Shown: positions 29,375 through 64,000 of the stretch, in pieces | How positions within the stretch are numbered: the first letter of the stretch is position 1 | Layout of the letters: each line of letters opens with the position of its first letter | Source: an uncultured Rickettsiales bacterium | Lineage (GTDB): Bacteria > Myxococcota_A > UBA796 > UBA9615 > CAYRNR01 | Assembly (NCBI GenBank): GCA_964558555.1 | Contig: CAZLEO010000005.1 | Location: 10,968 to 74,967, forward strand | DNA length: 64,000 bases | Direction of reading: 5' to 3' | Made by a program: the position numbers and the translations under genes | The notes under the pieces: generated by a model | Databases searched by the model: none | Told to the model about the DNA's origin: nothing | The model's input: only the letters and a program-made list of their open reading frames with translations

Positions 29375-29422
29375 GGTCCGTCTCCGCTTCACCCTGGGTT
29401 CGGACCTAGCGTAGCCGCGCTA

Positions 29423-29441: not shown

Positions 29442-29459
29442 AACGAATGGAGTGTCCCC

Positions 29460-49222: not shown

Positions 49223-49346
49223 GGTTCATCCCCTCCAGATCCAAGCAGTTGGATTCTACCATCGTGACTGGCCTGAGCGAGAGACCCACAAGGGGGGCAG
49301 TGGTAGGAATCGGCGGTGTGGGGCATCGGGAGCTCCCGGCCGAAAG

Positions 49347-50603
49347 TCACTGCCAGCCGAATGCCAGGCGCACCCGGCCGCCCAGGGAGAAGAACTGACT
49401 CCGCCCTTCGGACCGCGTGGGGACGATGGCTTGCGCGCGTTCCAGAGAGCGGAAGAGCTTGCTGACGGTTCCTTGCGTGAGTCCGAGGTGACGGATCACG
49501 TCCGCTTGTCTGAACTCATCCAGTCCAGATCCCACCAGAGTTGCGAGGTGACTGATCTCGGCGTCCGAGAGAGACCCCTGGAGTTGCTCGGTGTACAAGG
49601 GCGCCAGCACGACTCGAGCTTCTTCGATGCCTAGCGGCTCGGCGCCCAGAGCCCCCAGCGCGCGAAAGCACGCCTCGTCCAGCGCGCCGAACATGCCCCT
49701 CAGGTCTCCGCGGAAGAGCCCATAGATCTCACGGACGAGCGACTCCTGGACCGGCGGGACTACCTCCCCGTCTGGGAGTCGTAGCGCATCGAGACGCTTG
49801 TGAAGCAACAGCACCAGGTCGTCCAGGGACAGGGGTTCGAGGCGAACGGGTGGTGGAAAGATGCTCCTCACCTGGGCGTGAGTGTTCAGGATCCCTCCCC
49901 GGAACCCGTCGGTCGCCCCGAGCAACACGTGTACGCCCGGCACGAGGAAATAGTCTCGCGCATCACGGAACAACATGGCCGCCTCGGAAGGGTCGTCCTC
50001 CAGGTTCTCGAGGTTGTTGAGATGCACGACGATTCCGGTGATTCCCTCCGCGAGCGCCCCTTCGACGAGCCCGGCCAGCGCGTCGTGGAACTGGCTGGGT
50101 AGAAACGCCGGGCGCTCCCGCGGCTTGCTCCCACCGAACCCGCCACCGCTGCCCAGGACGGACACGCTCCACTGAAACGCGACGCGTTCGGTCTCCTCGA
50201 CAAGCCTCCGCACCTCGCCGTACCCGGACACCGACTCGGGCTTCCCCGAGGGCAGCGAGAGACGAATGCTCCGTAGGATCCCCCTCAACATCTCCACGCC
50301 CAACATGGTAGCGGACAGATCGTGAGGAACCCTGCAATGCTGCGACGAGACGGCCATCCCGTGTTCTTCGTGCAGCCTCGCCTTGACCTGCTGGATGAAC
50401 GTCGTCTTGCCGACTCCCGGCGGCCCGGAGATCACCATCCGGCTCGAGTCGCTCCCCAGAATCCGCTTCAAGACCTGTTCGGTCTCCTCAGCCCTGCCCA
50501 CGAAGAGGTCGATCGGGCGTGTGCTCGTTGGAGACAGGTCGAGCGCTTCCTGGAAGAACGGGCTGGTCCGGATACCGAACGAATTCCAGATATTGGCGGT
50601 CAT
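49347..50603 (-). CDS. ORC/Cdc6-like (AAA_16-type) P-loop ATPase with C-terminal winged-helix
   Basis: FVGRAEETEQVLKRILGSDSSRMVISGPPGVGKTTF is Walker A. ITGIVVHLNNLENLEDD is Walker B-like. The C-terminal LGLTQGTVSKLFRSLERAQAIVPTRSEGRSQFFSL is a wHTH. GC is about 60%, against about 70% for the surroundings. Start at ATG 50603 after GGGAGGG. Confidence 0.6.
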   Translation of the reverse strand: MTANIWNSFGIRTSPFFQEALDLSPTSTRPIDLFVGRAEETEQVLKRILGSDSSRMVISGPPGVGKTTFIQQVKARLHEEHGMAVSSQHCRVPHDLSATMLGVEMLRGILRSIRLSLPSGKPESVSGYGEVRRLVEETERVAFQWSVSVLGSGGGFGGSKPRERPAFLPSQFHDALAGLVEGALAEGITGIVVHLNNLENLEDDPSEAAMLFRDARDYFLVPGVHVLLGATDGFRGGILNTHAQVRSIFPPPVRLEPLSLDDLVLLLHKRLDALRLPDGEVVPPVQESLVREIYGLFRGDLRGMFGALDEACFRALGALGAEPLGIEEARVVLAPLYTEQLQGSLSDAEISHLATLVGSGLDEFRQADVIRHLGLTQGTVSKLFRSLERAQAIVPTRSEGRSQFFSLGGRVRLAFGWQ

Positions 50604-50746
50604 CATTCCCTCCCGTCGCACTGTAACGAATATTCACTGATTCGTGAACATTCGTCAAGGCCGGTCATCGGGAATGTTCTCGCGCCGCGCTCCTAAAACC
50701 ACGACGAGCTGGACAGGGCGAGCGCGAGCAGGGATTCGCGCCGGTG

Positions 50747-50782
50747 AAACCAGGAGCAAAACCAGGAGCAAAACCAGGAGGA
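50747..50782. repeat. 3 x 12-nt tandem direct repeat (A)AAACCAGGAGC upstream of the ATPase gene
   Basis: gtgAAACCAGGAGCAAAACCAGGAGCAAAACCAGGAGGatg, seen directly in the sequence. It lies about 145-180 nt upstream of the 50603 start on the opposite strand. Confidence 0.6.
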
Positions 50783-50822
50783 TGTCAGACGGTGGTGAAG
50801 CCCGTCCGAGTCAGAGCGTTCC

Positions 50823-51287
50823 TCACTCGTCGTCATCACCGACGTAGATGATGTAGATCATGATGCCGTGCTCGCCTTCCGCCTCCACGGTCTCGGCGAG
50901 TTCCAGCAGCTCCAGCTGGCACGCCTTGATGCTCTTGCCCTCCACCTCGAGCTCCCGCGGGATGCCAGTCACCGTCACGCGACTCATCGGGCGGCCGTCC
51001 TCGTCGATCTCCTCGAGCACCACCGTCGGCGCCGCAGCCCGCCCGGCCAGCGCGTCCGCCCACGCCTCGAGCAGCCTCACCGAGATCTGACCGTCGTACA
51101 GCGTCACGCTTCCGGCCTTCTCGTCCACCGCCGCGGCCTCGAACTCACCATCCTCGCCGCCGCTGGCCCCCACCGTGATCACGAACTCCCCGGCCTCGGC
51201 CTTCAGCGACTGGGCCATGGCAGCCGGGCACAGCGCCACGAGGGTGAACAGAGCGACAGAAACGCCGACGATCGTCTTGTGAGTCAT
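50823..51287 (-). CDS. small secreted protein (154 aa)
   Basis: ATG 51287 with GGAG 6 nt upstream. MTHKTIVGVSVALFTLVALCPAAMAQ is a signal peptide. The C-terminus is acidic (GDDDE). Confidence 0.55.
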   Translation of the reverse strand: MTHKTIVGVSVALFTLVALCPAAMAQSLKAEAGEFVITVGASGGEDGEFEAAAVDEKAGSVTLYDGQISVRLLEAWADALAGRAAAPTVVLEEIDEDGRPMSRVTVTGIPRELEVEGKSIKACQLELLELAETVEAEGEHGIMIYIIYVGDDDE

Positions 51288-51416
51288 GGAATCTCCTGGA
51301 ATGTGATTGCTTGCTCCCACGATTTCAGGATGCCCCGCAGGGCGGTGGTGGGCACTCACGCGGGTGGCACATGAAGTACAGTCGACCTCCTCCCCGCGAC
51401 CGCGTAGGGTCATCCC

Positions 51417-51770
51417 ATGCGCAAGCGCGACAGGCCACGCGTCCGCGTCGACCGCGACCACCAGCTCGGCTACTGGCCGCGAAAGCGGGTCGTGGCTTAC
51501 CGCAAGGCCGACACTCCCGATCAACCGTTCAAGGGCGTGCGCGAAGCCTGGATCCTCTGCCGCATCCCCTCCTTCACCGACGACTGGACCATCGAGTCCA
51601 TCGACACGAACCTGTTCATCTACGACTTCGTGCTCGCCGATGGGGATCGGCGCATCGAGGTCAAGGACGCGTGGGTGGACTTCTGGTCGAAGGAGTCGCG
51701 GCGAGGGAAGAGCCGGGAGGAACTCGAAGAGAGTGCCGCCAGGAACGGCTACCACCCCGTCCGCCCATGA
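51417..51770 (+). CDS. hypothetical protein (117 aa)
   Basis: GC3 is about 85% with basic N-terminus MRKRDRPRVRVDRDHQLGYWPRK. The stop overlaps the next start (ATGA). Confidence 0.45.
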   Translation: MRKRDRPRVRVDRDHQLGYWPRKRVVAYRKADTPDQPFKGVREAWILCRIPSFTDDWTIESIDTNLFIYDFVLADGDRRIEVKDAWVDFWSKESRRGKSREELEESAARNGYHPVRP

Positions 51771-51943
51771 TCTCCACGGAGACCCACCCCATGTTCCTCT
51801 TCGACATCCTCCAGCTCCACCACCCCGACCTCCAGCCCCACCGCTGCAAGCTCCACCTCGCCGTCCATACCGGCGAGGACGATCCCCAGGAGCACTGGAA
51901 GCGGGTGCTGGGGAGTCGGGAGTTCGGGTACAACCGGAATTGA
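51767..51943 (+). CDS. small hypothetical protein (58 aa), translationally coupled to the upstream ORF
   Basis: MISTETHPMFLFDILQLHHPDLQPHRCKLHLAVHTGEDDPQEHWKRVLGSREFGYNRN. ATG overlaps the upstream TGA. Confidence 0.35.
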   Translation: MISTETHPMFLFDILQLHHPDLQPHRCKLHLAVHTGEDDPQEHWKRVLGSREFGYNRN

Positions 51944-52114
51944 GCAGGCTCTCCGGCTTCCACCCTCGGCGCCGCAAGTCCCGGATGAGCCAGCCCACGA
52001 TCGCGGTCCCGGCACTGGCCTGGGCCTGAAAGAGAATCGTCAGAATCGGCTGAGCGACGGTGAAGACGAGGCCGATGATCACGAGTAGAGCGTCCACGGT
52101 ATCCTCCTGGCGTC

Positions 52115-52834
52115 TCAAGCCGATCCGATCGGTCCTTCGTAGATCTCCTCGGCGAACAGGGTCGCCTTGACCTGCTCGAACATCTCCCCCGTGCCACGGA
52201 TGAGTTCCTCCCGGTCGGCCAGCCTGCGCTCGAGCATGTCCTCGGAGAGCGCCCTGAACCGCTGAAGGCATTCGTCGCGTGGCCCCACCTCGACCTCGCC
52301 GTCCACGAACGTGGGGATTCGCCCCGGGCTGACCTTGTGCAGCGTGGCCCATGTCGAGCCGCCCAGTACGACCCGGTTGAGCAGCAAGACGATGTGGTGC
52401 TCATCCCCGATCACGCACTCGGACTTGAGGACCACCGGCCAGCGGGTGCGGCCGAAGAAGTAGCCCTCTGCAGGCCCGAAGTAGCGGTCCCAGATCCCAT
52501 CCCCTTCCTCGACCAGGGGGCCCGGCATGCACTGCATCCGGGGAATGTGGCACAGCACCCATCCCAGATCGTGGGACCGTGAGTGCACCGGCATGCGTCC
52601 GGAGGCCGGCTTCTCGTCTGTCCCCGGGACCTCGGCCCCGAGCTCCTCGATTACCCAGGTGCACCAGTCCAGCCAGTGCATGGTCTCCCTGGGCATCTGA
52701 AGGCCCATCTGAGCGCAGAAGGACGCTCGATGGATCGAGACGTAGCCCGTGCATGCGCTGAGGAACAGGTCCCCCCAGGTCATGTCGTCCCAGTCCAGGT
52801 CGGTGTCGTCGGTAACGATGAAGGGTCTGGTCAT
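52115..52834 (-). CDS. hypothetical protein (239 aa)
   Basis: ATG 52834 sits behind GGAGAGGA. MTRPFIVTDDTDLDWDDMTWGDLF... No recognisable motifs. Confidence 0.5.
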   Translation of the reverse strand: MTRPFIVTDDTDLDWDDMTWGDLFLSACTGYVSIHRASFCAQMGLQMPRETMHWLDWCTWVIEELGAEVPGTDEKPASGRMPVHSRSHDLGWVLCHIPRMQCMPGPLVEEGDGIWDRYFGPAEGYFFGRTRWPVVLKSECVIGDEHHIVLLLNRVVLGGSTWATLHKVSPGRIPTFVDGEVEVGPRDECLQRFRALSEDMLERRLADREELIRGTGEMFEQVKATLFAEEIYEGPIGSA

Positions 52835-53166
52835 GATTCGAATCCTCTCCGGAGCCGGTTCAGCCCGACGTCCAGGTCCAGGACATCGCGAATCGAGGGA
52901 TCGATCAACGCCGATATTTGTTACCGCCGGCACTTGCGAACGGCCGACGGTACTCGTGCTGGCGGTACTGGGGTTACCGCCGGTTCGAGGGCACGATCTG
53001 GCCCGCACCTTGCATCGGATTGGCCCCCTCCAGAGCGAGGCCATGCCAAGGCCAAAACGACGGAAATGGCAGCCGGCCAAGAAATCTGATCACGAAACAC
53101 ACATGTCGCGTTCTACTAAGGAAGGACAGCAACCTTCCCGCCCAGCTGTCGCGAGGAGAAACGACC

Positions 53167-54327
53167 ATGCGCACCATCCATGTCCCGAAGCCGTCCTCCG
53201 CCTGGCACGTACTCGTCCATGGCCATCAGGACGGCTGGCAGGCGCTGTCCGACCTGCTACGGCCACCGACGCGAACCGCTCAGGAGCGACACTATGCGCA
53301 GCTCGTCAAGGCGCTGACACGGGCTGTCGGACTGGAACACAACTCGGCCGAAGACGGGGGATGGGCCACGGTGTGGACATCCAACTCCATCGAGGGAACC
53401 GACCTTGGAGAGCAACACTGGCGGACATGGATCTCCGTGGATGACGATCAAGGTGGCGAGCGGATGTTCGGTGCGCTGCTCAGGGCGCTCGACGAGCAGG
53501 ACATCCCGTTCGACTCTGCCGCGTGCCGGGAGATGCTGCCGCCCGAGAGTCACCCCGTGCATGCTCGGTGGGGGACATGGTGCTTCGGTCCGCAGCGAGG
53601 GAGCATCAAGGCCTCGCTCCAGCCCGAGCACGGCGTAGTCGGGGTCGAAGTGGTGCGAGAAGCACCGCTCCCTTCCCTGAAGTGCCTCGCGTGCGAAGCG
53701 ACGGCGAGCCCCATCCCTCGAATCCTCGGGTACCCCAGTCCTGAAGGCGAGCTCGGTGTCCTGCTCGGAGAGCTCGTCTACGGAACGTGCGTGGTGGGTG
53801 GGCCCATGGCCACGGCCGAATGCGGCGCGTGTGGGAAGGGGCTCGTGCCGGGCTCGGCTGACGAGGAAGAAGTCGTGGGATCGGTGACCGGTGGGTTCGC
53901 CCATCAGGCTCGGGTCGAGCGGTTCAGGCGCCTGATCGTGGGAGGACGGGCGGGCACCCTGGTCTGGACGCCCTACGCCACGCAGCGCAACGGCTGGTGG
54001 ATGTTCTCCCTGAGCGCGGCCGTGAGGCAACGGCTCTCCGCTGCCTCCAACGCCGTTGTTGCTCTGAGACCTCGCGGGCTCCCGGCGCTGTTCGTTCCCT
54101 GGGCGCACATCGAGCCGATGACCGTGGACGACGAGCGCGAACGGATGGCGCTGCGCGTATCGAAGCGCGAACCCACGACGGTGAAACTCGGCAAGGCGAC
54201 GGTGGACGCCGTGACCCACCCGGAGCGACTCACACCTCCACCACCCGCCCCCACGGCGCATCGCCATGGCGCTTCGGCGCGACCCACAAGACCGGATACG
54301 GAGGTCTGCGCGTGGGAAAGTGGCTGA
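53167..54327 (+). CDS. hypothetical protein (386 aa), GC-atypical
   Basis: ATG 53167 with GAGGAG 8 nt upstream. Preceded by a 330-nt lower-GC intergenic region. The C-terminal 98 nt overlap the convergent VWA gene. Confidence 0.45.
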   Translation: MRTIHVPKPSSAWHVLVHGHQDGWQALSDLLRPPTRTAQERHYAQLVKALTRAVGLEHNSAEDGGWATVWTSNSIEGTDLGEQHWRTWISVDDDQGGERMFGALLRALDEQDIPFDSAACREMLPPESHPVHARWGTWCFGPQRGSIKASLQPEHGVVGVEVVREAPLPSLKCLACEATASPIPRILGYPSPEGELGVLLGELVYGTCVVGGPMATAECGACGKGLVPGSADEEEVVGSVTGGFAHQARVERFRRLIVGGRAGTLVWTPYATQRNGWWMFSLSAAVRQRLSAASNAVVALRPRGLPALFVPWAHIEPMTVDDERERMALRVSKREPTTVKLGKATVDAVTHPERLTPPPPAPTAHRHGASARPTRPDTEVCAWESG

Positions 54328-55516
54328 ACAGATCGGTGAGCCCCACGAACAGGTCCGGGCGGAGGCGTCGCTCGTCGAGCCACCGGAACACGGGGCGGTG
54401 GTCCGTGCCGCCACCCCCGCGGAACCGGGCGTGGCGCAAGAATGACGCGATCTCCACGTCGTCCACGGCCTGCTGCACCCTGGCGTCGGCGACGAGCAAG
54501 GTCATCTCCTCGACCTCCTGCGACAGGGCGTGCAGCTCGGCGGCGATGTCGTCGAGCAGCTCGTCAGAGATGCTGCCCGAGGTGTCCACGGCCACGACCA
54601 CGCAGCCCGCGCGCTCCGAGTGGATTCCAGGGACCAGCAGATCCTGCTCGAGGTACCGCCGGTTGGGCCGCGACAGGGCGTAGTCGTCCCGAGCGGTGGC
54701 CTGGCCGGCGTAGCTGCGGAAGAGCCGCTGCCAGGGTACGCGACGGCGACCTGCCCCCTGGATATCCCGCACCAGAGCCCCGGGCAGGTGCCCGGCCTGG
54801 TCCTGTCGCGACCAGGCCTCCACCGCCGCAGCGACGCGGCCGTGCAGCTCCTCGCGCTCGGCCGAGGAGAGCCCCCGGGGGAGGTGGACGTCGATCCCAC
54901 CGCCGTGATCGGTCACGTTGGGGACGACGACGCGGCCCGGCAGCACGGTGTTCTCGCCGCCGCCACCAGATCCGCCCGACTGGATTTCCAGCGTGAGCGT
55001 CACGCTCACCGGCTCGGGCAGCTCCTCGGCGGCGAGGTACTCGTAGATGGCCTCGGCGATCTTGCCGTCCCAGCGGGTGTCCAGGAGGATCTGGATGTCG
55101 CCAAGTCCCTCGATCTTGCCTTGAGGGGGGTCGTACAGCGCCCGGCCCGGCCGCGCCGGGTGCTGGATCTGCGACACGATCCGGTTGATGGCGTAGTCGG
55201 TGGCGCAGTTCCACAGCTGGGGGTTGCGGCCGCGCTCGCGGTCCTGGGTGGCGTAGAGCTGGTGCCCGACCTCGTGGGCGAGCACGAAGCCGAGCTGCTC
55301 GTGGCTCAGGTGCCGTGTCTTGAGCGGGTTGAACCAGATGTGACGCACGCAGTCGGTCGCCGCGATGCCCTCCAGCTCCGGGGCCGGCACCACGTGGACC
55401 TGCAGCAGCAGGTATCCCCAGAACGGGTGCATCTGGAGCATCTGCATCCGCAGCATCGACACGCGCTTCTCCTCGGCGGCGATGACGGCGTCGAGGTCGG
55501 GCGCAGCGCGGCTCAT
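54230..55516 (-). CDS. VWA-like domain protein with N-terminal putative metallopeptidase domain (DUF2201_N/DUF2201-type; MoxR-associated vWA protein)
   Basis: FVLAHEVGHQLYATQDRERGRNPQLWNCATDYAINRIV has HExxH and DxxxN motifs. The C-terminal VWA is VVVAVDTSGSISDELLD...GGGTD. ATG 55516 overlaps the MoxR stop (ATGA). Confidence 0.75.
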   Translation of the reverse strand: MSRAAPDLDAVIAAEEKRVSMLRMQMLQMHPFWGYLLLQVHVVPAPELEGIAATDCVRHIWFNPLKTRHLSHEQLGFVLAHEVGHQLYATQDRERGRNPQLWNCATDYAINRIVSQIQHPARPGRALYDPPQGKIEGLGDIQILLDTRWDGKIAEAIYEYLAAEELPEPVSVTLTLEIQSGGSGGGGENTVLPGRVVVPNVTDHGGGIDVHLPRGLSSAEREELHGRVAAAVEAWSRQDQAGHLPGALVRDIQGAGRRRVPWQRLFRSYAGQATARDDYALSRPNRRYLEQDLLVPGIHSERAGCVVVAVDTSGSISDELLDDIAAELHALSQEVEEMTLLVADARVQQAVDDVEIASFLRHARFRGGGGTDHRPVFRWLDERRLRPDLFVGLTDLFSHFPTRRPPYPVLWVAPKRHGDAPWGRVVEV

Positions 55517-56595: not shown

Positions 56596-56603
56596 GGCGT
56601 CTC

Positions 56604-57212
56604 CTAGAGCATCACGTCGAGCAGCTGGTACTTCAGGTCCTCGTGCTTGAGCAGCACCGCGATCACGTGCTTGCAGTACCCCCCCGTCACGTCCTTGCGG
56701 TGTTCCGCGTCCGGGCACGTGCAGCTCGGCGGTCCCGACCAGTCCTCGAACACCCGCACCTCGTAGGGCCGGGTCCCACCTTCGAGCGCAAACACCTGCA
56801 CCCCCTCGGCCACCCCCTTCACCTCGATCCGATACCGCTTGATCACGTCGTGCGCCGCGCGCAGGAACCGCTGGTCCCGCGCACGGATGTCGATGGTCAC
56901 CTGCCTGTCCGTCATGCCCTGGCCTCCGTTTCCCAGCACGTTCACGGGCGCCCGATATCGGACCCCGTCCACCCAGACCACACCCTCGGCGCAGCGCTGG
57001 TTCAGCCACTGCGTCCACTCGACCAGCAGATACCGCTGAACGCTGGCCTGTCGGCCGAACCAGACCGACGCGTACACGTAGAAGCTGCGACTGTTCACCT
57101 CGCGCACCCGATACACCGCTCCCAGCGCCCACTTGTTCAGCGGCGAGGCTCCGGGCGAGTAGTCCGCCCGGTCGAGTACGAACACGATCATCCCGCGCTG
57201 AGGTGCCTTCAT
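56604..57212 (-). CDS. SWIM zinc-finger protein
   Basis: The C-terminus SCTCPDAEHRKDVTGGYCKHVIAVLL is a CxC...CxH SWIM finger. It is the first gene of a three-gene operon with the MoxR and VWA genes. Confidence 0.7.
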   Translation of the reverse strand: MKAPQRGMIVFVLDRADYSPGASPLNKWALGAVYRVREVNSRSFYVYASVWFGRQASVQRYLLVEWTQWLNQRCAEGVVWVDGVRYRAPVNVLGNGGQGMTDRQVTIDIRARDQRFLRAAHDVIKRYRIEVKGVAEGVQVFALEGGTRPYEVRVFEDWSGPPSCTCPDAEHRKDVTGGYCKHVIAVLLKHEDLKYQLLDVML

Positions 57213-57248
57213 CTCGCCCTCTTTCACGACTGGTTCTACCGTCTGGGC

Positions 57249-57264
57249 TGGACAGCGGTTGTCA
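57249..57264. promoter_or_regulatory. inverted repeat TGGACA-gcggt-TGTCA in the SWIM/WYL divergent promoter region; candidate operator
   Basis: ctggacagcggttgtcacc shares the GGACA-N5-TGTC core with the palindrome at 29423-29441. Confidence 0.4.
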
Positions 57265-57305
57265 CCGACAGGCCGTTCCCGCACAATCTCCCCTCGGAGG
57301 TCCCC

Positions 57306-58319
57306 ATGCCCGGTACCAAGCCCACGTACTCCGACGGCATCCAGATGGTGCAGATGCTCCAGTGGCTCGAGGCCAGCTCCAACCGTCAATTGCGGATCAA
57401 CGCCATTGCCGAGCGGATGGAGGTCCACCGCCGCACCGTGATCCGCTATGTGGACGCCCTCAACGCCTCGGTGGACAACGACCTGGGTGAGCCCATCGTC
57501 GAGCGGGTGGGCACCGGCGTGCGGGCCGTGGCCAAGCTGGGCCAGCGGGTCCAGCCCCTGTCCGCGCGCATCTTCCAGTTCGCGGCCGTCTACGCGGCCA
57601 CCCGATCACAGGAATCCGGTGGGGGTTCCCTGCTCAGCGACGCCACGGGCCCTCTCCTGGAACAGATGGAGGCTGGCTTCGAGATGAACCTCCGGCCCAT
57701 CGCCCGGCGCGTCCACGATGCATTCCACCACGTGCCGTTCGGACCCAAGGACTACCGGGCCAACCAGGACGCCCTCGACGCCGTGGTCCGCGGCGCCCTG
57801 TACCACCGGCCGGTGACGATCCGGTACCGCACCCTCGACGGATGGAAGATCACCAAGAAGATCGAGCCGTTCACCCTGCTGACCTACCGCGACGGCCTGT
57901 ACGTTCTGGCGCGACAAAAGGTGAAGAAGGGCCCGCGCATGCGGCTGTACGCGGTGGATCGCATCCTCGAGGCGGACCTGCACCGGAAAGAGGAGTTCAA
58001 GGTCCCGGCCGGCTACCGGCCCGAGGACTTCTTCCGCGGATCGCTGGGCCTGTGGCAGACCGACAAGCGCGCCCAGCGCATCCGGATCGCGTTCGACGCC
58101 GACGTGGTCGCCGTGGTCAAGGAGCGCCAGTGGCCGGGCATCGAGGGGTGGGAGGAGCTCGACGACGGGCGCTGGGCCCTGGATCTCAAGGTGCCCGTCA
58201 CCCCCGAGGTCGTCACATGGATCATCACCTGGGGCCGCGCCGCCGAGGTGCTCGCGCCCAAGACGTTGCGGCGGCGAGTGCAGGGTGAGCTGAAGGCCGC
58301 GCTGGCCCAGTACAGCTAG
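57306..58319 (+). CDS. WYL domain transcriptional regulator (wHTH-WYL-WCX, BrxR/CapW-like)
   Basis: N-terminal HTH (LRINAIAERMEVHRRTVIRYVDAL). The WYL core is HRPVTIRYRTLDGWKITKKIEPFTLLTYRDGLYVLARQ...LYAVDRI. The WCX is VTPEVVTWIITWGRAAEVLAPKTLRRRV. ATG 57306 with GGAGG 6 nt upstream. Confidence 0.85.
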   Translation: MPGTKPTYSDGIQMVQMLQWLEASSNRQLRINAIAERMEVHRRTVIRYVDALNASVDNDLGEPIVERVGTGVRAVAKLGQRVQPLSARIFQFAAVYAATRSQESGGGSLLSDATGPLLEQMEAGFEMNLRPIARRVHDAFHHVPFGPKDYRANQDALDAVVRGALYHRPVTIRYRTLDGWKITKKIEPFTLLTYRDGLYVLARQKVKKGPRMRLYAVDRILEADLHRKEEFKVPAGYRPEDFFRGSLGLWQTDKRAQRIRIAFDADVVAVVKERQWPGIEGWEELDDGRWALDLKVPVTPEVVTWIITWGRAAEVLAPKTLRRRVQGELKAALAQYS

Positions 58320-59800
58320 AAAGGGATGTCGCCGTCCGAGGCGTCATCACCAGGCGTCCACTCCCAGGTTCGCTTCGCCACCCCGCAGAGATCGCTGTCC
58401 TGGTCGAACCACGGACCGAACAGCACCAGGTACACCTCGAGACGAGCGTCCCGTGCACGCCCGACGAGCCCCTCGTCCACCCCACCGTACCCGTCGGTCA
58501 ACACCAGGATCCTCCGATACCGCTGCTCCAGCGCGTGGTCGAGGATGCAGTCGAAGTCGGTCCCGCCCGTGGTCTCGTACCTGCCCTCGGCCAGGTCCCC
58601 CAGCAGCGCCGTGGACACCTGGTTCGAGAACACGTGCACCCGGTCCCCCACGTGATCCTCCAGGGCCGTGCACAGCCGAAACAAGAAAGGCAGCTGCTCG
58701 TCCATGGACCCCGATCCGTCCACGTACAGCTGGACCCGCTGGTCGTCCTCGATCTCCTGCTCCAGCGGCGCGGTCCAGAACAGCGGCGTGCAGCCCAGGG
58801 CCAGGCTCAGCGCCTCGGACCGTCCGAGGCGGCCCACCACCCCCCGTTCCGCCGTGAGCGCCTTGCGCGTGACGGGATGATCCGGGTCGGCGTCCATGGC
58901 CAGCCGGATGGCCGCGAGCAGTGGGGCGGGATCGGGCTGGCCGTCGTCGAGCTGGAGTTCCTGCAGGCGCAGGAACTTGCCGTGGCCGCCGTGGATGCCG
59001 AAGACCTCGGACAGGATGCGGGCGTCGCCCTTCCACTGGACATCCCTCAGCTCGTGGTCGCCCAGCAGAATGGGGACATTGCCCAGGACCAGCGGGAGCT
59101 CCTCGGCCATGGCGTCGCAGAACTGCGGCCAGAACTCGGCAAACCCCTGCGAATCCAGCCAGGCGTTGAGGTACAGCTCGGCCACGGCCGATGGTCGCCG
59201 TACCCCCACGCGGTTGAGCGCGTCCTTGAGCAGCCCGTGAAGCTGGGAACGTGCGGCATAGGTCGGCCCGAAGCGGCCGGTGCGGGGGTCGACAGCGAGC
59301 AGGTCCTCGACCTCTGCGCAGCCGTGCTCCCGCAGCAGCACGATGGGCGGCAGGAGCAGCATCTCCGGGAATGCGTTGGGCCGATACAGCCGCTGCAGAT
59401 ACGGTGCCCCCTCGCCGTCGAACCACATCCGCTCCAGCTGGGCGTCCACGAACATGTCCAGGGCCAGGCCCAGCAGGGTCCTGGTGGTGAAGTCCAGGTG
59501 CACGAACCGCGACAGGTCACCGCGGACACGATGCAGGATCTCGTGGGCGAGCAGGTGCAGCGCAGAGTCGTCCTCGAGGACCTTCTCCGCCACGAACTCC
59601 GGGTCCACCTCGATCACCGCGCCACGGCTCGACGCCCTCAGCCGCGCCGAGCCCACACCGGGCGCCTCTTGCACGCGCAGGCAACCACCGTCACTGTCCA
59701 GCAACCACATCAGCAGGTTCAGCGCCCGGCGGCCGCGCGGATGATCCATCCGACGTCGCGCGGCCTGCAGCGCAGCAGGCAGGAACTCGGCAAACCTCAC
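58316..59800 (-). CDS. VWA domain protein with N-terminal HExxH metallopeptidase-like domain (second MoxR-associated vWA protein)
   Basis: LLAHEILHRV is an HExxH motif. The C-terminal VWA is LYVDGSGSMDEQL...TTGGTDF. GTG 59800 overlaps the upstream stop (GTGA) and has GAGGTG 5 nt upstream. Confidence 0.7.
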   Translation of the reverse strand: MRFAEFLPAALQAARRRMDHPRGRRALNLLMWLLDSDGGCLRVQEAPGVGSARLRASSRGAVIEVDPEFVAEKVLEDDSALHLLAHEILHRVRGDLSRFVHLDFTTRTLLGLALDMFVDAQLERMWFDGEGAPYLQRLYRPNAFPEMLLLPPIVLLREHGCAEVEDLLAVDPRTGRFGPTYAARSQLHGLLKDALNRVGVRRPSAVAELYLNAWLDSQGFAEFWPQFCDAMAEELPLVLGNVPILLGDHELRDVQWKGDARILSEVFGIHGGHGKFLRLQELQLDDGQPDPAPLLAAIRLAMDADPDHPVTRKALTAERGVVGRLGRSEALSLALGCTPLFWTAPLEQEIEDDQRVQLYVDGSGSMDEQLPFLFRLCTALEDHVGDRVHVFSNQVSTALLGDLAEGRYETTGGTDFDCILDHALEQRYRRILVLTDGYGGVDEGLVGRARDARLEVYLVLFGPWFDQDSDLCGVAKRTWEWTPGDDASDGDIPF

Positions 59801-60864
59801 GCCGTCACCTCGGGCGTCGGGAGCGCTCCGACGAGCAGCGAAGCGCCCGGCGGCTCCACGTGGGCGACGGGCGGGTTCTGCGGCAGGTAGGTCCCGCCCA
59901 CGGTCCTCGACAGCACCGCGCGCACGGCGGCGGGGTCGTCGATCACGGGGAGGTCCGTGGACAGTCGCGTCGGATCGGACAGCAACCCCGGCTCCACCAG
60001 GAAGCACGGCGGGAGGCTCTCGTCCACGTCAGCAACAACGTCGTTGCACTCCATGTGATCCGGGACACGCAGCACGAATCTCGGCCACAACTCGGCCATG
60101 GGCACGCGCCCGCGGGCCGAAGAGGAACACGCCGTACCATGCTCGTCGAACCGCCTGTAGACCGCGTCAGGCAGCCTGTCGTATGCGCTGTACCTGCGTG
60201 TGACCCCGCGATCGACGTGGATCACCTGGCTGTTGTGCCCCGATCCCACGATGAGCCACTCGCAGTAGGGGACCGTCAGATCGCCCACCGCCAGCGTCCG
60301 CTCGATGGCCACGGCCAGGGCCTCGCTGCGCGACCGGCAGTAGTACGCGTGCCCGGGCCGGTCCAGGCGCACCCAGCCGTGGTTTTCCAGGTCCAGATTG
60401 TCGGCTTCCACCAGCGGCAGCGCCGGGCCGGGCCCGCACGTGTCGCCCTTGTCGACGAACGCCTCGAGCGCGACCCGCCGCTGCGCCACGGTCGTGCGAC
60501 CACGCTGGATCTCCCGCAAGCGCTCGTCCAGCGCGCTGCTCCCCACCGGCGCCCACCGGGCCAGCAGGAAGTCGATCAACGCCGAGCGGGACGCGTACGC
60601 GATCAGACCATCGAAGCTCTCGGTGCCGTCGTCTCCTCGCAGGGACACACGGCCCGGTACCGGGTCGTACAGCCGACGACGGCGCCTGAACCTCCTCCCG
60701 CGCCGGCGACAGAGATAGCGCCCATCCGCCGCAACCGCCGAGGACTCCTCCAGCGCCCCGAACTCCTCCTCGACCGCGTGGGCGAGGGACACATCCACAC
60801 ACGCCGCCTCCAGCACGTCCACGTAGGGCCTACGCTCCCTGAGCCTGTAGCACGTGATCTTCAT
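59797..60864 (-). CDS. hypothetical protein (355 aa), middle gene of the second MoxR-VWA operon
   Basis: ATG 60864 follows AAGGAGGGGAGG and overlaps the MoxR stop (ATGA). MKITCYRLRERRPYVDVLEAAC... No recognisable domain. Confidence 0.55.
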   Translation of the reverse strand: MKITCYRLRERRPYVDVLEAACVDVSLAHAVEEEFGALEESSAVAADGRYLCRRRGRRFRRRRRLYDPVPGRVSLRGDDGTESFDGLIAYASRSALIDFLLARWAPVGSSALDERLREIQRGRTTVAQRRVALEAFVDKGDTCGPGPALPLVEADNLDLENHGWVRLDRPGHAYYCRSRSEALAVAIERTLAVGDLTVPYCEWLIVGSGHNSQVIHVDRGVTRRYSAYDRLPDAVYRRFDEHGTACSSSARGRVPMAELWPRFVLRVPDHMECNDVVADVDESLPPCFLVEPGLLSDPTRLSTDLPVIDDPAAVRAVLSRTVGGTYLPQNPPVAHVEPPGASLLVGALPTPEVTA

Positions 60865-62393
60865 GACGGCCTCCCCTCCTTGCCGGTCAGGCCTTCGCTC
60901 ACCTCGGCCCGCTTCTTCCCGGCCATGTCCACGTCCGCCCGATCGTCCACGTCCCCCACCCGGTCCCGCGACAGCTCGATGGCCGCCCGCGAGGCCAGCC
61001 AGTCCAGGTCTCCGGAGAACGCGCGCGGATCCTTCGCCACCTCCTGGGCCAGGTCCGCCACCTCGTCCCAGTCCGAGCTGTGCAGCCCGGACACCGCCCG
61101 CCACGAGTCGAAGATGCGGCTGACCACGTCCAGGGGCATCCGCGCGTGGTGCCTCGCCGCCACCTCCACCAGCCGCCTCAGCGCCGGCACCGACTCCCCC
61201 CAGCGCCGGGCGCTGACGCCGGCCTCCTCCCCCAGCGGCCGCACCACCCGGCTGACCACCTCGTGGTGGTCCTCCTCCCCGAGGTCACCGAGCGCATCCT
61301 CGTACTGCTCCACCATCTGTTCCAGCGACGTCTGAGCGAACACCGAGCACGCCGCCTGGCTCCCCGCGCCCTTCGCCCCTTCTTCCCCGGCAAAGCTCTG
61401 CTCCCACGCCGCCAGGTGCACCGGGTACAGCACCGTGCTCGGCACCGCCTCGTCCAGCGCCGGCCCCGGCAGCAGATGTCGCACACAATCGAACAGCGCG
61501 CCCTCGTCCGGCACGTCCTTGCCCCGCACCCGGTCCACCGCCATGCCCGCGGCCAGCGCGCGATACATCAACGACAGCCGCCTGCCGTCCAGGTCGATCT
61601 TCTGGGCCCTCAACAGCGCCTGGAAGCTCCTCACGTAATCCACCAGGGGCGGGCCGTACTCCTCGACCACCTCCCCCAGTACGACCCTGGACTCCTCCAC
61701 CACCCGCGCGATCCCCTCCCCCGCCTCGATCCGGTCGCCCTGCCCGTTCCAGACCTCCTTGCACCCCGGCGCGTCCGCCGCCGTCACCGTGCGGATCACC
61801 GCATCCACCTGCTGCGCGGTCATGTCCTTCACCGTCGGCATCGTCACGATGTAGGCGAACCGCCCCACCAGCGCCGGGTCCAGCGTCCTCGCCCCCAGGT
61901 AGCCGGGGGGGTTCATCGCCCCGAACACCATCTTCAGCGACTCCACCGCCTGCCCCATCACCCGCCGCGATCGGACGACCTCCAGCCACTTGTTCTGCAT
62001 CGCAGGTGCGGCACGCGACAGTTCGTCCACCAGCACGAACTCGACACCCCAGATGGAGATCTCGGTGGGGACGTAGCCGAGCTTGCCCTCGCCGAGATCC
62101 CGAGGGTTCGGGAAGCCGATGATGTCCTCGAACAGCGCCTTGGACGCGTCGTACGCGCGGAAGCGCATCGCCAGGGCGTCGGCAAGGGCCTCGGCCATCG
62201 CGGTCTTGGCGGTACCGTGCGCGCCCACCAGCAAGAGCGGATCGCCCGTGACCAGCGACGCCAGCACGGGCGTGGCAATGGTCTCCATCCCGTACAGGCC
62301 GACGGCCTCCAGGGGATCACGGCGGATACGCTCGGAAAGGGACTGTGACACGGGGGCCACGGCCACGGGCGCCGTTGCGGTGTCCTCGAACAT
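60861..62393 (-). CDS. MoxR-like AAA+ ATPase with long C-terminal extension (510 aa)
   Basis: PLLLVGAHGTAKTAMAEALA is Walker A and VEFVLVDELSRAAPAMQNKWLEVV is Walker B. AAA_3/5-like. Confidence 0.75.
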   Translation of the reverse strand: MFEDTATAPVAVAPVSQSLSERIRRDPLEAVGLYGMETIATPVLASLVTGDPLLLVGAHGTAKTAMAEALADALAMRFRAYDASKALFEDIIGFPNPRDLGEGKLGYVPTEISIWGVEFVLVDELSRAAPAMQNKWLEVVRSRRVMGQAVESLKMVFGAMNPPGYLGARTLDPALVGRFAYIVTMPTVKDMTAQQVDAVIRTVTAADAPGCKEVWNGQGDRIEAGEGIARVVEESRVVLGEVVEEYGPPLVDYVRSFQALLRAQKIDLDGRRLSLMYRALAAGMAVDRVRGKDVPDEGALFDCVRHLLPGPALDEAVPSTVLYPVHLAAWEQSFAGEEGAKGAGSQAACSVFAQTSLEQMVEQYEDALGDLGEEDHHEVVSRVVRPLGEEAGVSARRWGESVPALRRLVEVAARHHARMPLDVVSRIFDSWRAVSGLHSSDWDEVADLAQEVAKDPRAFSGDLDWLASRAAIELSRDRVGDVDDRADVDMAGKKRAEVSEGLTGKEGRPS

Positions 62394-62502
62394 GACTCAC
62401 CTCCATGAGATGGGGTGAGTGTAGGGGTGGGGCTGGACAGGGGTTGTCCAGGAAGAGCCGGAAGGTTCGTGTAGGATTCACGAACACGAGGGAGCCGAGC
62501 CC

Positions 62503-63006
62503 ATGCGATATGTCTTCGTCCGCCACGGCCTCTACAAGTACGAAGGGATGCCCGATTCCGAGAAGGACGACAAGGCGCTGGAACCCCACGGGGTGAAGGG
62601 CGCACTCGGAGCGGCGGACTACCTCGCAGGCGAGCACATCGTGCCCGACCTCATCCTCGTGACCCTCAAGCGACGCACGGCCCACACCGCCGAGATCATC
62701 CGCGACGCGCTTCAGCTGCCGGACGTGCCCCTCCATCGCACGAGGTCCGGGCACAGAGGCCGCAAGACCGTTCCCAGGAAGCTCGAGGAGTGGATCGACC
62801 ATCACGACATCGGCGAGTCGCAGACCCTGATGTTCGTCGGCCACGGCAACAGCCAGAACGCCCTGCGGTCCTTCTTCGACGAGGGCGCCAAGCCCCCATC
62901 CGACGGGGTCAGTCACTGCGCCGTGCTGATCCTGGACGTCCGCGGGCGCGGCAAGGAGATGCAGATCCGCGGCAAGACGTTCGATTCCGGGCTACCCGTC
63001 CCCTGA
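62503..63006 (+). CDS. histidine phosphatase family protein (SixA/phosphoglycerate-mutase-like)
   Basis: MRYVFVRHG has the RHG motif. ...LMFVGHGNSQNAL contains the second His. Confidence 0.65.
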   Translation: MRYVFVRHGLYKYEGMPDSEKDDKALEPHGVKGALGAADYLAGEHIVPDLILVTLKRRTAHTAEIIRDALQLPDVPLHRTRSGHRGRKTVPRKLEEWIDHHDIGESQTLMFVGHGNSQNALRSFFDEGAKPPSDGVSHCAVLILDVRGRGKEMQIRGKTFDSGLPVP

Positions 63007-63016
63007 CACCCCGCCC

Positions 63017-63916
63017 CTAGGAATCCTTGCTGGAGCTTGCCTCGCCATTCTCTCCGGCTGCCTTCCTCGCCTTCTGCCTGATCTGGTACATCTGCAGCGC
63101 CAGCCCACCCGCGAAGTACTCCAGCCACTCCGTGTAGTCCCCCGTCCGGTCCGCAGTGCGCAGCGTGGCGTAGTAGTTGTCTCGATTCTTGTTGTAGTAG
63201 CTCGCCAGGTCGAACAGGTACTTGTAGTCGTACCCGCGCTGGTACAACAACGCTGTCGTGAGCATCCTCGCGGTCCGGCCGTTGCCGTCGACGAAGGGAT
63301 GGATCCACACGAGGCGGTGCTGCAAGATCCCCGCGACCAGCACCGGGTGCGTCCAGCCGTCGACGACCCCCCGGCGGACCTGCGCCGGCGTCGGCTTGTG
63401 CTTGCAGCCATCGACCCAATCGAGCAGCTCGCGCAGCTCGTCCTCGACCCGGCCCCAGGGTGGCGGCTGGTGGTGGACGACCGTCTCCTCGCCCTGCACA
63501 TCCCCTACACACACGTCTTCGCGTCGGATCTGGCCGGCGAAGCGGTCCCCGCCACGGACGCCCTCTACCAGGCGACGATGGATATCCCGGAGATCACTGA
63601 TCCGGAACGTGTACTCGCGCGCACCGCGGAGATCCTCGATGGCGCCGAAAACACCGAGGTAGTTCAGGAACTCCTTCTCCGAGTCACGCAGCTCCCGTTC
63701 TCTCGGCTCCTTGATCAGCTCGAACGCCATCTCCAGCGTCAGGGAGTTCCCCTCGATCTGCACGCTCGCAAGGGCGTCCTCGACCCGCACGGCCTGGCGT
63801 AGCTCACCGACCCATTCGGGCCGCATGCGTACGGCCGAGAGCATGCCGCGGGTGCGTTCGATCGCGACCAGCTGGCGCTGGATGCGGGGAGTCAGTCGAT
63901 AGGTGGGTTCGAACAT
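63017..63916 (-). CDS. Fic/DOC family protein (Fido domain)
   Basis: HPFVDGNGRTARML matches the Fic motif HPFx[D/E]GNGRxxR. 299 aa. Confidence 0.85.
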   Translation of the reverse strand: MFEPTYRLTPRIQRQLVAIERTRGMLSAVRMRPEWVGELRQAVRVEDALASVQIEGNSLTLEMAFELIKEPRERELRDSEKEFLNYLGVFGAIEDLRGAREYTFRISDLRDIHRRLVEGVRGGDRFAGQIRREDVCVGDVQGEETVVHHQPPPWGRVEDELRELLDWVDGCKHKPTPAQVRRGVVDGWTHPVLVAGILQHRLVWIHPFVDGNGRTARMLTTALLYQRGYDYKYLFDLASYYNKNRDNYYATLRTADRTGDYTEWLEYFAGGLALQMYQIRQKARKAAGENGEASSSKDS

Positions 63917-64000
63917 GTCGTGGTCCTCGTAGGGAAGTGCATCGCGTACGCTACTCCGGTACGCTCTCGTTCTCCACCTCGGGCACAGGGGACACCCCTG

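Follow-up and report, generated by a model that had tools for sequence, protein, structure and literature searches.

Two paralogous MoxR/zincin–vWA modules flank an HTH–WYL–WCX regulator in a seven-gene cassette

MoxR–vWA-centric ternary conflict systems have been described in VMAP, iSTAND, FtsH and beta-propeller types (Kaur, Burroughs, Iyer, Aravind 2020, PMC7159879), and a pair formed by a MoxR protein and a metallopeptidase–vWA protein is found in jumbo phages, where a role in virion assembly has been proposed (Iyer et al. 2021, PMC7824862). Among WYL regulators, published passages describe DdaA as controlling damage-response and defence genes alike, and PafBC as substituting for -35 recognition. 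Here we analyse a window of 64,000 nucleotides, the whole stretch of DNA under study, and 9.9 kb past its end, about 74 kb of the genome in all.

A seven-gene block and its variable neighbours

The first-pass annotation listed, in the last 15 kb of the window, an AAA_16 ATPase with a wHTH, small ORFs, two MoxR–vWA systems, a WYL regulator, a histidine phosphatase and a Fic protein. Each of these is present where claimed, and one gene, encoding a SWIM protein (56604-57227), had been overlooked. They do not make up one system. The real unit is a block of seven genes at 54230-62393 whose order is conserved in relatives, SWIM–MoxR1–DUF2201(HExxH+vWA) <WYL> MoxR2–p355–p494(HExxH+vWA), in which two paralogous modules flank an HTH–WYL–WCX regulator. 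Each module consists of a MoxR-clade AAA+ ATPase, a fusion of an HExxH zincin-like domain and a C-terminal vWA domain with intact MIDAS, and a small third subunit, which is a SWIM zinc-finger protein in module 1 and p355 in module 2. The ORC-like ATPase, the small ORFs, the phosphatase and Fic are variable neighbours outside this unit; neither the ORC-like gene nor the phosphatase is more than an incidental neighbour, and Fic lies beside the block in one relative only. The genes are:

49347-50606, minus strand: AAA_16 P-loop ATPase with a C-terminal ArsR/MarR-type wHTH ("ORC-like"; PF13191 E 5.4e-12)
50823-54327: five lineage-specific ORFs, of 154 aa with a signal peptide (minus), 117 aa (plus), 58 aa (plus), 239 aa (minus) and 386 aa with CxxC pairs (plus)
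54230-55516, minus strand: zincin–vWA protein, 428 aa, DUF2201_N + DUF2201 (Pfam PF13203 1e-24, PF09967 1e-25)
55513-56595, minus strand: MoxR1, MoxR-type AAA+ ATPase, 360 aa (Pfam AAA 5e-8, AAA_5)
56604-57227, minus strand: SWIM zinc-finger protein, 207 aa (Pfam SWIM 1.8e-7)
57306-58319, plus strand: HTH_11–WYL–WCX transcription regulator, 337 aa (Pfam HTH_11 7.5e-7, WYL 3.7e-9, WCX 3.4e-12)
58316-59800, minus strand: p494, divergent zincin–vWA protein (phrog_1314 8e-9)
59797-60864, minus strand: p355, fast-evolving third component, 355 aa, without known domain
60861-62393, minus strand: MoxR2, MoxR-clade AAA+, 510 aa (Pfam AAA_5; bpMoxR 30.4 bits against a cut-off of 27)
62503-63006, plus strand: histidine phosphatase (branch 1), 167 aa (Pfam His_Phos_1 E 9e-6)
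63017-63916, minus strand: class II Fic, 299 positions (Pfam Fic 1e-18, PADLOC SoFic 1.9e-45)

Motifs are intact throughout the cassette (HEVGH/HEILH, DTSGS/DGSGS, Walker A/B and CxCx13CxH). In module 1, the 428-aa protein belongs to the DUF2201 family by both Pfam domains (88.1 bits with a cut-off of 23.2, and 90.7 bits with one of 26.4) and carries the zincin motif HEVGH at 55262-55276 and the MIDAS motif DTSGS at 54572-54586; its vWA domain has DTSGS…GGTD…LTD, which makes it a MIDAS vWA partner in the same operon as MoxR. MoxR1 has the Walker A motif GHPGVGKS and the Walker B motif MVFLDE, and the SWIM motif CTC-x13-CKH lies at 56667-56723, in a gene that is kept in relatives L007 and L010. 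Both ATPases fall in the MoxR clade by their AAA_5, AAA_3 and bpMoxR matches and intact Walker motifs, which in MoxR2 read GAHGTAKT and FVLVDE; the family profile of MoxR2 matches midasin and 2r44 in the PDB.

The p494 protein carries HEILH at 59531-59545 and the MIDAS motif DGSGS at 58706-58720, and its DGSGS…GGTD…LTDG aligns with the MIDAS of the DUF2201 vWA. It has no Pfam match and thus no Pfam assignment to DUF2201; the matches that link it to this family are weak profile matches only, to phrog_1314 (8e-9) and by hhalign (E 0.005, covering the vWA region alone). At the DNA level, 55263-55284 and 59532-59553 are paired repeats that span the HExxH-coding sites of the DUF2201 protein and p494. 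No match to p355 was found in Pfam, PADLOC, PHROG or NCBIfam, and its homologues form 90 representative clusters within 1.84 billion proteins. Its AF2 model is confident (pLDDT 87.4, pTM 0.83), with a mixed alpha/beta fold and no significant Foldseek match of any kind in PDB or BFVD. In PADLOC-DB v2, no model matches the DUF2201 protein, p494, p355 or the ORFs of unassigned family, and MoxR1 and MoxR2 match generic AAA cores only (TRIP13, IetA).

Among the neighbours, the label "ORC/Cdc6-like" holds as a loose architectural description but not as membership of the Orc1/Cdc6 family, which was rejected on a TIGR02928 match confined to the P-loop region (20.6 bits against a cut-off of 181); matches to ORC1 and ORC4 in the PDB likewise lie around the P-loop only (E 1e-3 to 1e-2). 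A homologue (70%) occurs in the sample of L007 on a different contig, adjoining an SNF2–DUF3670 helicase. The five small or lineage-specific ORFs have neither a family match in Pfam, PADLOC, NCBIfam or PHROG nor homologues at the relatives' loci, and the phosphatase is missing from the loci of L007, L010 and L013. Fic carries HPFVDGNGR at 63275-63301 and the inhibitory SVQIEG at 63749-63766, is found in L007 (75% identity) and is absent from L010 and L013. It was rejected as a SoFic equivalog (NCBIfam NF046030, 42.3 bits against a cut-off of 550) despite its strong PADLOC match.

An operator palindrome shared with nearby operons

In both module promoters a spacer of exactly 9 nt separates the palindrome TGGACA-N5-TGTCCA from a TAnnn(T/C) -10 box downstream. 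The palindrome is also found at three further promoters within 45 kb: before a phosphatase (PTP)/ADP-ribosylglycohydrolase operon, before a small gene, and before a tandem-AAA/DnaE-like polymerase operon that adjoins a WYL paralogue. The sites and genes concerned include:

57248-57266: operator 1, CTGGACAGCGGTTGTCACC, within the 78 bp that form the divergent promoter region of WYL and SWIM; towards SWIM, N9 and TAGAAC follow
62433-62451: operator 2, the perfect palindrome CTGGACAGGGGTTGTCCAG; on the MoxR2 side followed by N9, TACACT, the SD GGAGGTGA and ATG
29423-29441: operator 5, TTGGACACATAATGTCCAA, between the WYL paralogue (29460-30389, plus strand) and the tandem-AAA+ gene
27236-29392, minus strand: tandem-AAA+ gene, followed by the DnaE-like polymerase gene (about 24363-27230, minus strand)

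The strict pattern occurs five times in 74 kb, at four sites, against 0.075 expected, and a PWM adds a fifth site at 69828; all five sites lie in promoter regions. Operator 5 has an AT-rich spacer and scores lower in the PWM, 17 versus 23-29 for the others. The position of operator 1 and the arrangement at operator 2 are kept in L007, L010 and L013, and every one of the 14 promoters from the window and relatives carries TGTCC-N2-N9-TAnnn(T/C). The operator carriers of L007 belong to the same operon families, namely a b135-like gene, a PTP–ADP-ribosylglycohydrolase gene, both modules and a tandem-AAA gene. Among loci with a MoxR2 homologue, a GAC-N7-GTC palindrome lies upstream of it in five of the seven with an adjacent WYL gene versus 2 of the 26 without. 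On the phosphatase side of operator 2 there is no -10 box at the fixed spacing, and no operator was found upstream of Fic.

The regulator at 57306-58319 has the order HTH, WYL, WCX seen in DriD/PafBC/DdaA-type proteins; its sole PDB sequence match is DriD 8tp8, which is weak (E 0.0096). It is one of two WYL paralogues, the other lying at 29460. The palindrome core matches the operator of the WYL activator DdaA (GACA-N5-TGTC) as given in the published passages. From position, conservation and this analogy, we infer that the WYL protein or its paralogue binds the palindrome. Since the module operons and the three nearby operons share this putative regulator-binding site, DNA damage or phage attack probably induces all of them in concert. 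This common operator had been missed by the first-pass annotation, as had the paralogous zincin–vWA nature of both MoxR–vWA systems, which are predicted to be co-regulated with operons outside the span that it delimited.

A working model can be outlined by analogy. The WYL protein or its paralogue would sit on the palindrome, which takes the place of the usual -35 element, and would respond to ssDNA or some other nucleic acid that signals DNA damage or infection by a phage, leading to activation of all palindrome-bearing operons, as DdaA, DriD and PafBC do. The MoxR hexamer would then spend ATP on remodelling its vWA partner, whose MIDAS site may hold a target peptide, so that the fused putative metalloprotease is switched on or given substrate; SWIM and p355 might serve as adaptors or sensors.

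Origin and possible role of the cassette

The block keeps its gene order in L007 (MoxR2 82% identical), L010 (77%) and L013 (69%), with module 1 present in L013 as fragments only, and the flanks differ completely among the three. The MoxR2–p355–p494 triad is also found standing alone in about 33 MAGs across many phyla. WYL is its sole recurrent neighbour (6 matches among 110 immediate neighbours of 33 loci), and in four further loci (one Spirochaetia, two Endomicrobia, one Acidobacteriota) DUF2201-type pairs adjoin MoxR2 triads. On balance we favour reading 54230-62393 as a conserved seven-gene cassette native to a marine and probably myxobacterial chromosome, with two MoxR/zincin–vWA modules under WYL-type co-regulation. 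Because 26 of the 33 triad loci have no adjacent WYL gene and their neighbours are mostly housekeeping genes, defence is a candidate role only; we rate an anti-invader function as a serious though tentative proposal, and a damage-repair or proteostasis function as possible but doubtful.

The second of these could take the form of modules acting in a WYL-driven DNA-damage response, not in immunity, one possibility being that a metalloprotease driven by ATP removes proteins that are damaged or bound to DNA, alongside AddAB and the DnaE-like polymerase. The operator/promoter design does resemble that of the damage-response activators DdaA, DriD and PafBC, and the operon at operator 5 encodes a tandem AAA+ ATPase and a PHP/Pol III-alpha polymerase, although the latter scores below the NCBIfam cut-offs for DnaE1 (445/1002) and DnaE2 (259/939). 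AddAB adjoins the cassette here and in L010, and in L071 it is located some 4 kb upstream of a MoxR2 homologue, but it has no operator upstream in the palindrome scan. The homologous pair of the N4-like phage Presley adjoins exonuclease V, and the gene for the DNA polymerase comes about 2.4 kb after that in the downstream direction; a published passage reports that PafBC deletion in M. smegmatis modestly lowers two MoxR proteins and one vWA protein. Against this, DNA repair is not known for any MoxR–vWA pair, and the fast evolution of p355 and the patchy spread of the triad across phyla look more conflict-like. We regard a role in the damage response, and not in immunity, as possible but doubtful.

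The first-pass annotation took the whole 15 kb for a single horizontally acquired defence/toxin island whose insertion machinery may lie outside the window. Conflict-type genes are indeed present, including the MoxR–vWA modules, the WYL regulator and a Fic with its SoFic match of 1.9e-45, and the flanks are variable: the ORC-like gene and the small ORFs are missing at the relatives' syntenic loci, and L007 has an MmeI-type restriction-modification gene in the position of AddAB. At other loci the triad in some cases adjoins defence genes (type I S subunits, type IIG RM, Cas1, PDC-S01/S02, PIN). The marked GC heterogeneity was not borne out once gene boundaries were corrected. GC in 1-kb windows is 0.63-0.66 at 49-54 kb versus about 0.70 elsewhere; gene by gene, GC3 is 0.86-0.95 in the cassette, the phosphatase, Fic and three small ORFs, whose synonymous-codon scores stay within about 1.2 SD of the 29 upstream genes. 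Composition is mildly low only in the ORC-like gene (GC 64%, z -1.3/-1.7), the 386-aa ORF (u386) and the FG-GAP gene, which are no lower than some upstream genes. With 11 of the 15 genes of the span within ±1.2 SD of background in GC3 and codon score, atypical composition does not single out an island. The window holds no tRNA or integrase, as had been noted, and no Rfam family; none of the three occurs in the next 9.9 kb either, where insertion machinery had been suspected, and ordinary AddAB genes directly adjoin. There is no transposase in the window or these 9.9 kb, and the borders lack att-like or direct repeats as signatures of mobility.

By the first-pass annotation's own criterion, the same gene order and composition in all related myxobacterial genomes would mark the region as core: the order is shared for the seven-gene block, not for the flanks, and some loss of synteny is expected because the relatives are only 69-82% identical. 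The cassette also has its operator in common with operons that lie 28 kb upstream of it and 11 kb downstream. A wholesale acquisition is therefore unlikely, and the supposed foreign defence island appears to be mostly native chromosome with the conserved seven-gene cassette as its core. Still less credible, to the point of being very improbable, is an origin of the MoxR/zincin–vWA genes as prophage remnants with a virion-assembly chaperone/protease role, for although MoxR1 and the DUF2201 protein have full-length matches to phrog_1297 and phrog_1314 (1.7e-66 each), homologues occur in 282 phage records (including N4-like phages, phage G and PA5oct) and an assembly role has been put forward (PMC7824862), identity to the phage copies is just about 25%, no structural, lysis or integrase genes lie nearby, codon usage is that of the host, and the block is kept in non-phage contexts and belongs to a putative chromosomal regulon.

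Comparison with described systems

Fic resembles SoFic and other class II Fic AMPylases in HPFVDGNGR, the N-terminal inhibitory SxxxEG motif and the strong PADLOC match. It differs from SoFic in falling far under the NCBIfam cut-off (42 vs 550) and in being shorter (299 vs 361 positions); it is without an operator and present in only one of three relatives. Module 1 has the same two-protein architecture as the phage pair of jumbo phages and N4 gp24/gp25-like proteins, with a full-length match; in contrast to that pair, the bacterial copy lies within a predicted chromosomal stress regulon under WYL control, and the scanned phage copies gave no SWIM match.

The regulator shares its HTH–WYL–WCX architecture with DdaA (Moraxellaceae), DriD (Caulobacter) and PafBC (mycobacteria). 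Judged by the published passages, the palindrome core is identical to that of DdaA, the operator directly adjoins the -10 box, an arrangement also seen in PafBC-type promoters, and DNA-metabolism and conflict genes are mixed as in the DdaA regulon; for the DdaA, DriD and PafBC regulons, those passages make no mention of MoxR–vWA modules or PTP–ADP-ribosylglycohydrolase. Sequence similarity of the WYL protein to DriD is marginal, and ligand, binding and activation are predicted here by analogy.

The ternary systems of PMC7159879 are matched in operons of a MoxR-clade AAA+, a MIDAS vWA protein and a fast-diverging third protein, in patchy distribution across phyla, in the bpMoxR match of MoxR2 and, for the beta-propeller and FtsH types, in its GxxxTAK(S/T) P-loop variant. 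Unlike in those systems, the vWA domain of the cassette proteins lies at the C-terminus of a fusion that begins with an HExxH zincin domain, and neither a beta-propeller nor a C-terminal effector array is present. As third subunit the cassette has p355 or SWIM in the place of VMAP, iSTAND or FtsH, and VMAP Pfam models match none of the cassette proteins; the modules moreover come as a pair, with a WYL regulator between them. Judged from sequence, the cassette appears to be a new form of MoxR–vWA ternary system that belongs to a predicted WYL-controlled stress regulon.

Gene map, composition and the conserved unit

The gene map was built from GC3-based frame analysis combined with public gene calls. 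Public marine-metagenome contigs, which differ from the window at 8 positions over 11 kb, supplied independent gene calls and, through the near-identical contig L001, 9.9 kb past position 64000 (extended coordinate = 73917 − L001 coordinate). An affiliation with Myxococcota is suggested by the named homologues.

Genes from 47054 to 63916
47054-49222, minus strand: FG-GAP/MopE lipoprotein
49347-50606, minus strand: AAA_16 and wHTH protein ("ORC-like")
50823-54327, mixed strands: five unknown ORFs
54230-55516, minus strand: DUF2201 (zincin–vWA)
55513-56595, minus strand: MoxR1
56604-57227, minus strand: SWIM protein
57306-58319, plus strand: WYL regulator
58316-59800, minus strand: p494 (zincin–vWA)
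59797-60864, minus strand: p355
60861-62393, minus strand: MoxR2
62503-63006, plus strand: histidine phosphatase
63017-63916, minus strand: Fic protein

The seven genes from DUF2201 to MoxR2 are here called the cassette, consisting of module 1 (SWIM–MoxR1–DUF2201), the WYL gene and module 2, or triad (MoxR2–p355–p494). Past the window end lie AddB, AddA, a gene of 150 aa, a fusion of a DSP-phosphatase with an ADP-ribosylglycohydrolase (PTP-ARH), two genes of 164 and 135 aa (the latter b135) and a 1739-aa Ser/Thr kinase; the remainder of the window holds ordinary chromosomal genes such as MurJ, penicillin amidase, a C25 peptidase and a hybrid histidine kinase.

The first-pass annotation had read 49223-64000 as a GC-heterogeneous conflict-system island, and all the gene classes that it named were found within the window. 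The heterogeneity holds for a dip from the window's ~70% GC to 63-66% across 49-54 kb, but most genes are host-typical: per-gene GC3 is 0.84-0.95 throughout the cassette and in phosphatase, Fic, AddAB and three of the small ORFs, and their synonymous-codon scores stay within ~1.2 SD of an upstream background of 29 genes. Mildly low values occur in just three genes here, FG-GAP, ORC-like and u386 (a 386-aa ORF), and in some upstream genes as well. The window has no tRNA or integrase (the annotation had seen none at the borders), and the 9.9-kb extension, where it had suggested that they might lie, contains none either; no Rfam family occurs in the window or the extension. Att-type repeats were rejected, since a repeat search found no att-like repeats. 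Compared with relatives, the flanks differ completely but the seven genes keep their order, so the unit is the seven-gene cassette and not the 15-kb span, and the "island" is largely ordinary chromosome. Also rejected were ORC/Cdc6 membership of the AAA_16 and wHTH protein (TIGR02928, 20.6 bits versus a cut-off of 181) and a prophage origin of the modules, whose phage copies are ~25% identical and whose codon usage is host-like.

Relatives' loci were reached through the contigs that encode MoxR2 homologues of 82%, 77% and 69% identity (L007, L010 and L013, respectively). L007 and L010 carry all seven genes in identical order and orientation, with MoxR2–p355–p494, a convergent WYL gene and a divergent SWIM–MoxR1–DUF2201 operon. 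At one end of the L007 cassette lie Fic, an MmeI-type restriction-modification gene and PTP-ARH, and at the other a WHD–AAA–AAA gene and a helicase; that of L010 is flanked by an FHA–GGDEF gene on one side, with AddB on the side opposite to its position in the window. L013 retains MoxR2–p355–p494–WYL, with module 2, the WYL gene and both operators intact; its module 1 is reduced to fragments at 15289-15960 (SWIM residues 105-207, MoxR1 14-47, DUF2201 366-428). Upstream of the L013 MoxR2, at a distance of ~740 bp and beyond one small ORF, is an ARPP-1 gene (4e-84).

The ORC-like gene, small ORFs and phosphatase have no counterpart in these three loci; a 70% ORC-like homologue adjoins an SNF2–DUF3670 helicase on a separate contig of L007's source sample. 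The only mobility gene seen among related loci is an rve-family IS integrase (L097:41-1248), inserted upstream of a relative's ORC-like homologue in one contig variant. Upstream of the ORC-like gene in the window (50607-50822), three tandem GCTCCTGGTTTT copies and a 30-nt AT-rich near-palindrome (ACGAATGTTCACGAATCAGTGAATATTCGT) may form a separate regulatory site. The Fic upstream regions of the window (63917-64065) and L007 (8880-8971) have CGCGTACGC…GGTAC in common but no cassette operator, which suggests that Fic is under separate control. u386 (53167-54327), which contains CxxC pairs, is annotated on ENA contigs but not on JGI ones, and its 3' end extends 98 bp into the convergent DUF2201 gene; no homologues were found in relatives.

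Proteins of the two modules

DUF2201 combines HEVGH with a MIDAS-type DTSGS…GGTD…LTD series, and p494 combines HEILH with DGSGS…GGTD…LTDG. p494 has no Pfam match; it matches phrog_1314 (8e-9), and hhalign aligns it with DUF2201 over the vWA part only (E 0.005, low probability). Their genes have in common a 22-nt DNA repeat spanning the HExxH-coding site. Taken together, these features indicate that p494 and DUF2201 are divergent paralogues, with homology of the N-terminal halves drawn from the HExxH context and the repeat. Of the eight positions at which the window and L001 differ, seven are packed into 100 bp (55217-55316) surrounding the HEVGH codons of DUF2201. Each is a third codon position; six of the changes are silent and one gives Q100H. 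The cluster resembles a short tract acquired by recombination with a diverged allele.

Walker motifs are intact in both MoxR proteins. The MoxR2 sequence GAHGTAKT is the GxxxTAK(S/T) variant reported by Kaur et al. (PMC7159879) for the beta-propeller and FtsH types, and its family profile matches midasin and 2r44. The SWIM protein contains CxCx13CxH. The divergence of p355 outpaces that of its partners (in L010, where MoxR2 is 77% identical, p355 is 59% identical), and its family comprises 90 representative clusters among 1.84 billion proteins, with few invariant residues. AF2 gave an unusable p355 model from 6 close sequences (pLDDT 36) and a usable one from 51 family members.

A shared operator and promoter design

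The sequence CTGGACAGnGGTTGTC is common to the 78-bp WYL/SWIM and 109-bp MoxR2/phosphatase intergenic regions and occurs nowhere else in the 64 kb. It belongs to a palindrome, TGGACA-N5-TGTCCA, whose relaxed form TGGACA-N5-TGTC is present at four sites (five occurrences, both strands) of the extended 74-kb sequence versus 0.075 expected; a PWM added a fifth site.

Operator sites in the extended sequence
29423: perfect palindrome TTGGACACATAATGTCCAA, between a WYL paralogue and a divergent 718-aa tandem-AAA+ gene
57248: between the divergent WYL gene and SWIM operon
62433: between the divergent MoxR2 operon and phosphatase gene
69828: upstream of the 150-aa gene and PTP-ARH
73029: between the divergent 135-aa gene and kinase gene

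The 29423 site lies 22 bp upstream of the WYL paralogue (29460-30389, 309 aa), which has no Pfam match and is 24% identical to the cassette WYL protein over 283 residues (E 7e-13). Downstream of the tandem-AAA+ gene, within 24363-30389, is a divergent DnaE-family (PHP/Pol III-alpha) polymerase, which falls below the cut-offs of both DnaE1 and DnaE2. In L007 the operator precedes orthologous operon families: a b135-like gene, PTP-ARH, MoxR2, WYL/SWIM and WHD–AAA–AAA, the last 30% identical to the tandem AAA protein of the window. Both PTP-ARH and b135, a small, acidic, wHTH-like protein (177-179 aa in relatives), carry the operator here (L001:1-3572, extended 70345-73916) and in L007, and the start of the 1739-aa kinase is divergent from b135.

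All 14 promoters compared, from the window and relatives, have the arrangement TGTCC-N2-N9-TAnnn(T/C) oriented toward the downstream gene, which places the operator where a -35 element would be; toward the WYL gene itself and toward the phosphatase gene this operator–-10 arrangement is missing. Among triad loci, 5 of the 7 that have a WYL gene next to them show a GAC-N7-GTC palindrome upstream of the MoxR2 homologue, versus 2 of the 26 that do not (hypergeometric p ~0.002, by hand, for non-independent lineages). The cassette WYL protein has one sequence match in the PDB, a weak one to DriD (8tp8, E 0.0096). PMC11804915 describes PafBC as ssDNA-activated and contacting a motif just upstream of the -10, replacing -35 recognition. 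In the proposed mechanism, one or more WYL proteins would bind the palindrome and activate the operons upon a nucleic-acid stress signal; MoxR hexamers would then remodel their zincin–vWA partners, which may hold a target through the MIDAS site, with SWIM and p355 as putative adaptors.

Distribution, possible roles and relation to known systems

A scan of one genome per species yielded 80 loci, 33 of which keep the order MoxR2–p355-like–p494-like. Their hosts range from 26 to 74% GC and include Myxococcota, Endomicrobia, Goldbacteria, Acidobacteriota, WOR-3, Planctomycetota and Spirochaetia. In all-against-all clustering of flanking ORFs, the sole recurrent neighbour was a WYL regulator (7/33 loci). 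The 110 immediate neighbours include 6 WYL regulators and ~10 defence-type genes (type I S subunits, type IIG RM, Cas1, PDC-S01/S02, PIN, RtcR, ARPP-1), the remainder being mostly housekeeping genes. DUF2201_N/vWA and MoxR pairs occur no more than a few kb from MoxR2 triads at four further loci, in Spirochaetia (L031), Endomicrobia (L028 and L049) and Acidobacteriota (L060), and repeated pairing in such distant lineages argues for a functional link of the two modules. In the Spirochaetia MAG, the two modules share a strand and belong to one 10.5-kb run of genes (L031:1452-12003), with seven extra unannotated genes (78-454 aa) between and within them; this may be the system in a larger version, either ancestral or alternative.

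The module 1 pair is also found in phages (phrog_1297/1314, 1.7e-66), with homologues at ~25% identity in 282 phage records. In the N4-like phage Presley it adjoins exonuclease V, and a DNA polymerase gene lies ~2.4 kb further downstream. This MoxR and metallopeptidase–vWA pair has been noted in jumbo phages, with a proposed role in virion assembly (Iyer et al. 2021, PMC7824862).

What do the modules do? The fast evolution of p355, the patchy, cross-phylum spread, the decay of module 1 in L013, the conflict-type regulon partners (the PTP–ADP-ribosylglycohydrolase fusion, and ARPP-1 in L013) and the phage-borne homologues favour a conflict role, while the polymerase operon, the adjacency to AddAB and the phage replication-module context favour a role in the damage response. 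DdaA, according to PMC12392091, controls damage-response genes plus RM, Zorya and CRISPR systems, a precedent which shows by analogy that one WYL regulon can serve both roles. Our most far-reaching proposal is speculative and less likely than not: the paired MoxR/zincin–vWA modules, SWIM type and p355 type, might be an undescribed class of inducible system, switched on by an ssDNA-sensing WYL activator to process a target protein proteolytically. They would then be effectors of immunity or abortive infection, or else proteases that act in repair, with p355 as a new-fold specificity subunit, and N4-like and jumbo phages would be using this core pair to ends of their own.

Few of the unexplained ATPase systems in bacteria and phages are as common as MoxR–vWA pairs. 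The two pairs described here come with a predicted on-switch, a WYL operator in a fixed promoter design, and clear catalytic motifs, making a direct experiment possible, and the regulon-embedded double module is worth one. Such a regulon would add a myxobacteria-like lineage to those in which damage and defence regulons are known to be under WYL control (Moraxellaceae, Caulobacter and actinobacteria), and a function is suggested for the N4 gp24/gp25-like genes present in hundreds of phages. The MoxR2–p355–p494 triad is rare, jumps between phyla and has one subunit without a structural match, which makes it a candidate to include when screening for defence systems.

The modules have no model in PADLOC, and literature searches on DUF2201 and on SWIM, MoxR and vWA combinations yielded no description of them; the core pair of module 1 is already known in phages, but these searches gave no account of it together with SWIM, WYL control or a second module. 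The modules differ from the ternary conflict systems of Kaur et al. in having no VMAP, iSTAND, FtsH or beta-propeller, the type-defining features, but resemble them in three-gene logic, and in their predicted working they are like the MoxR–vWA chaperone/co-chaperone systems.
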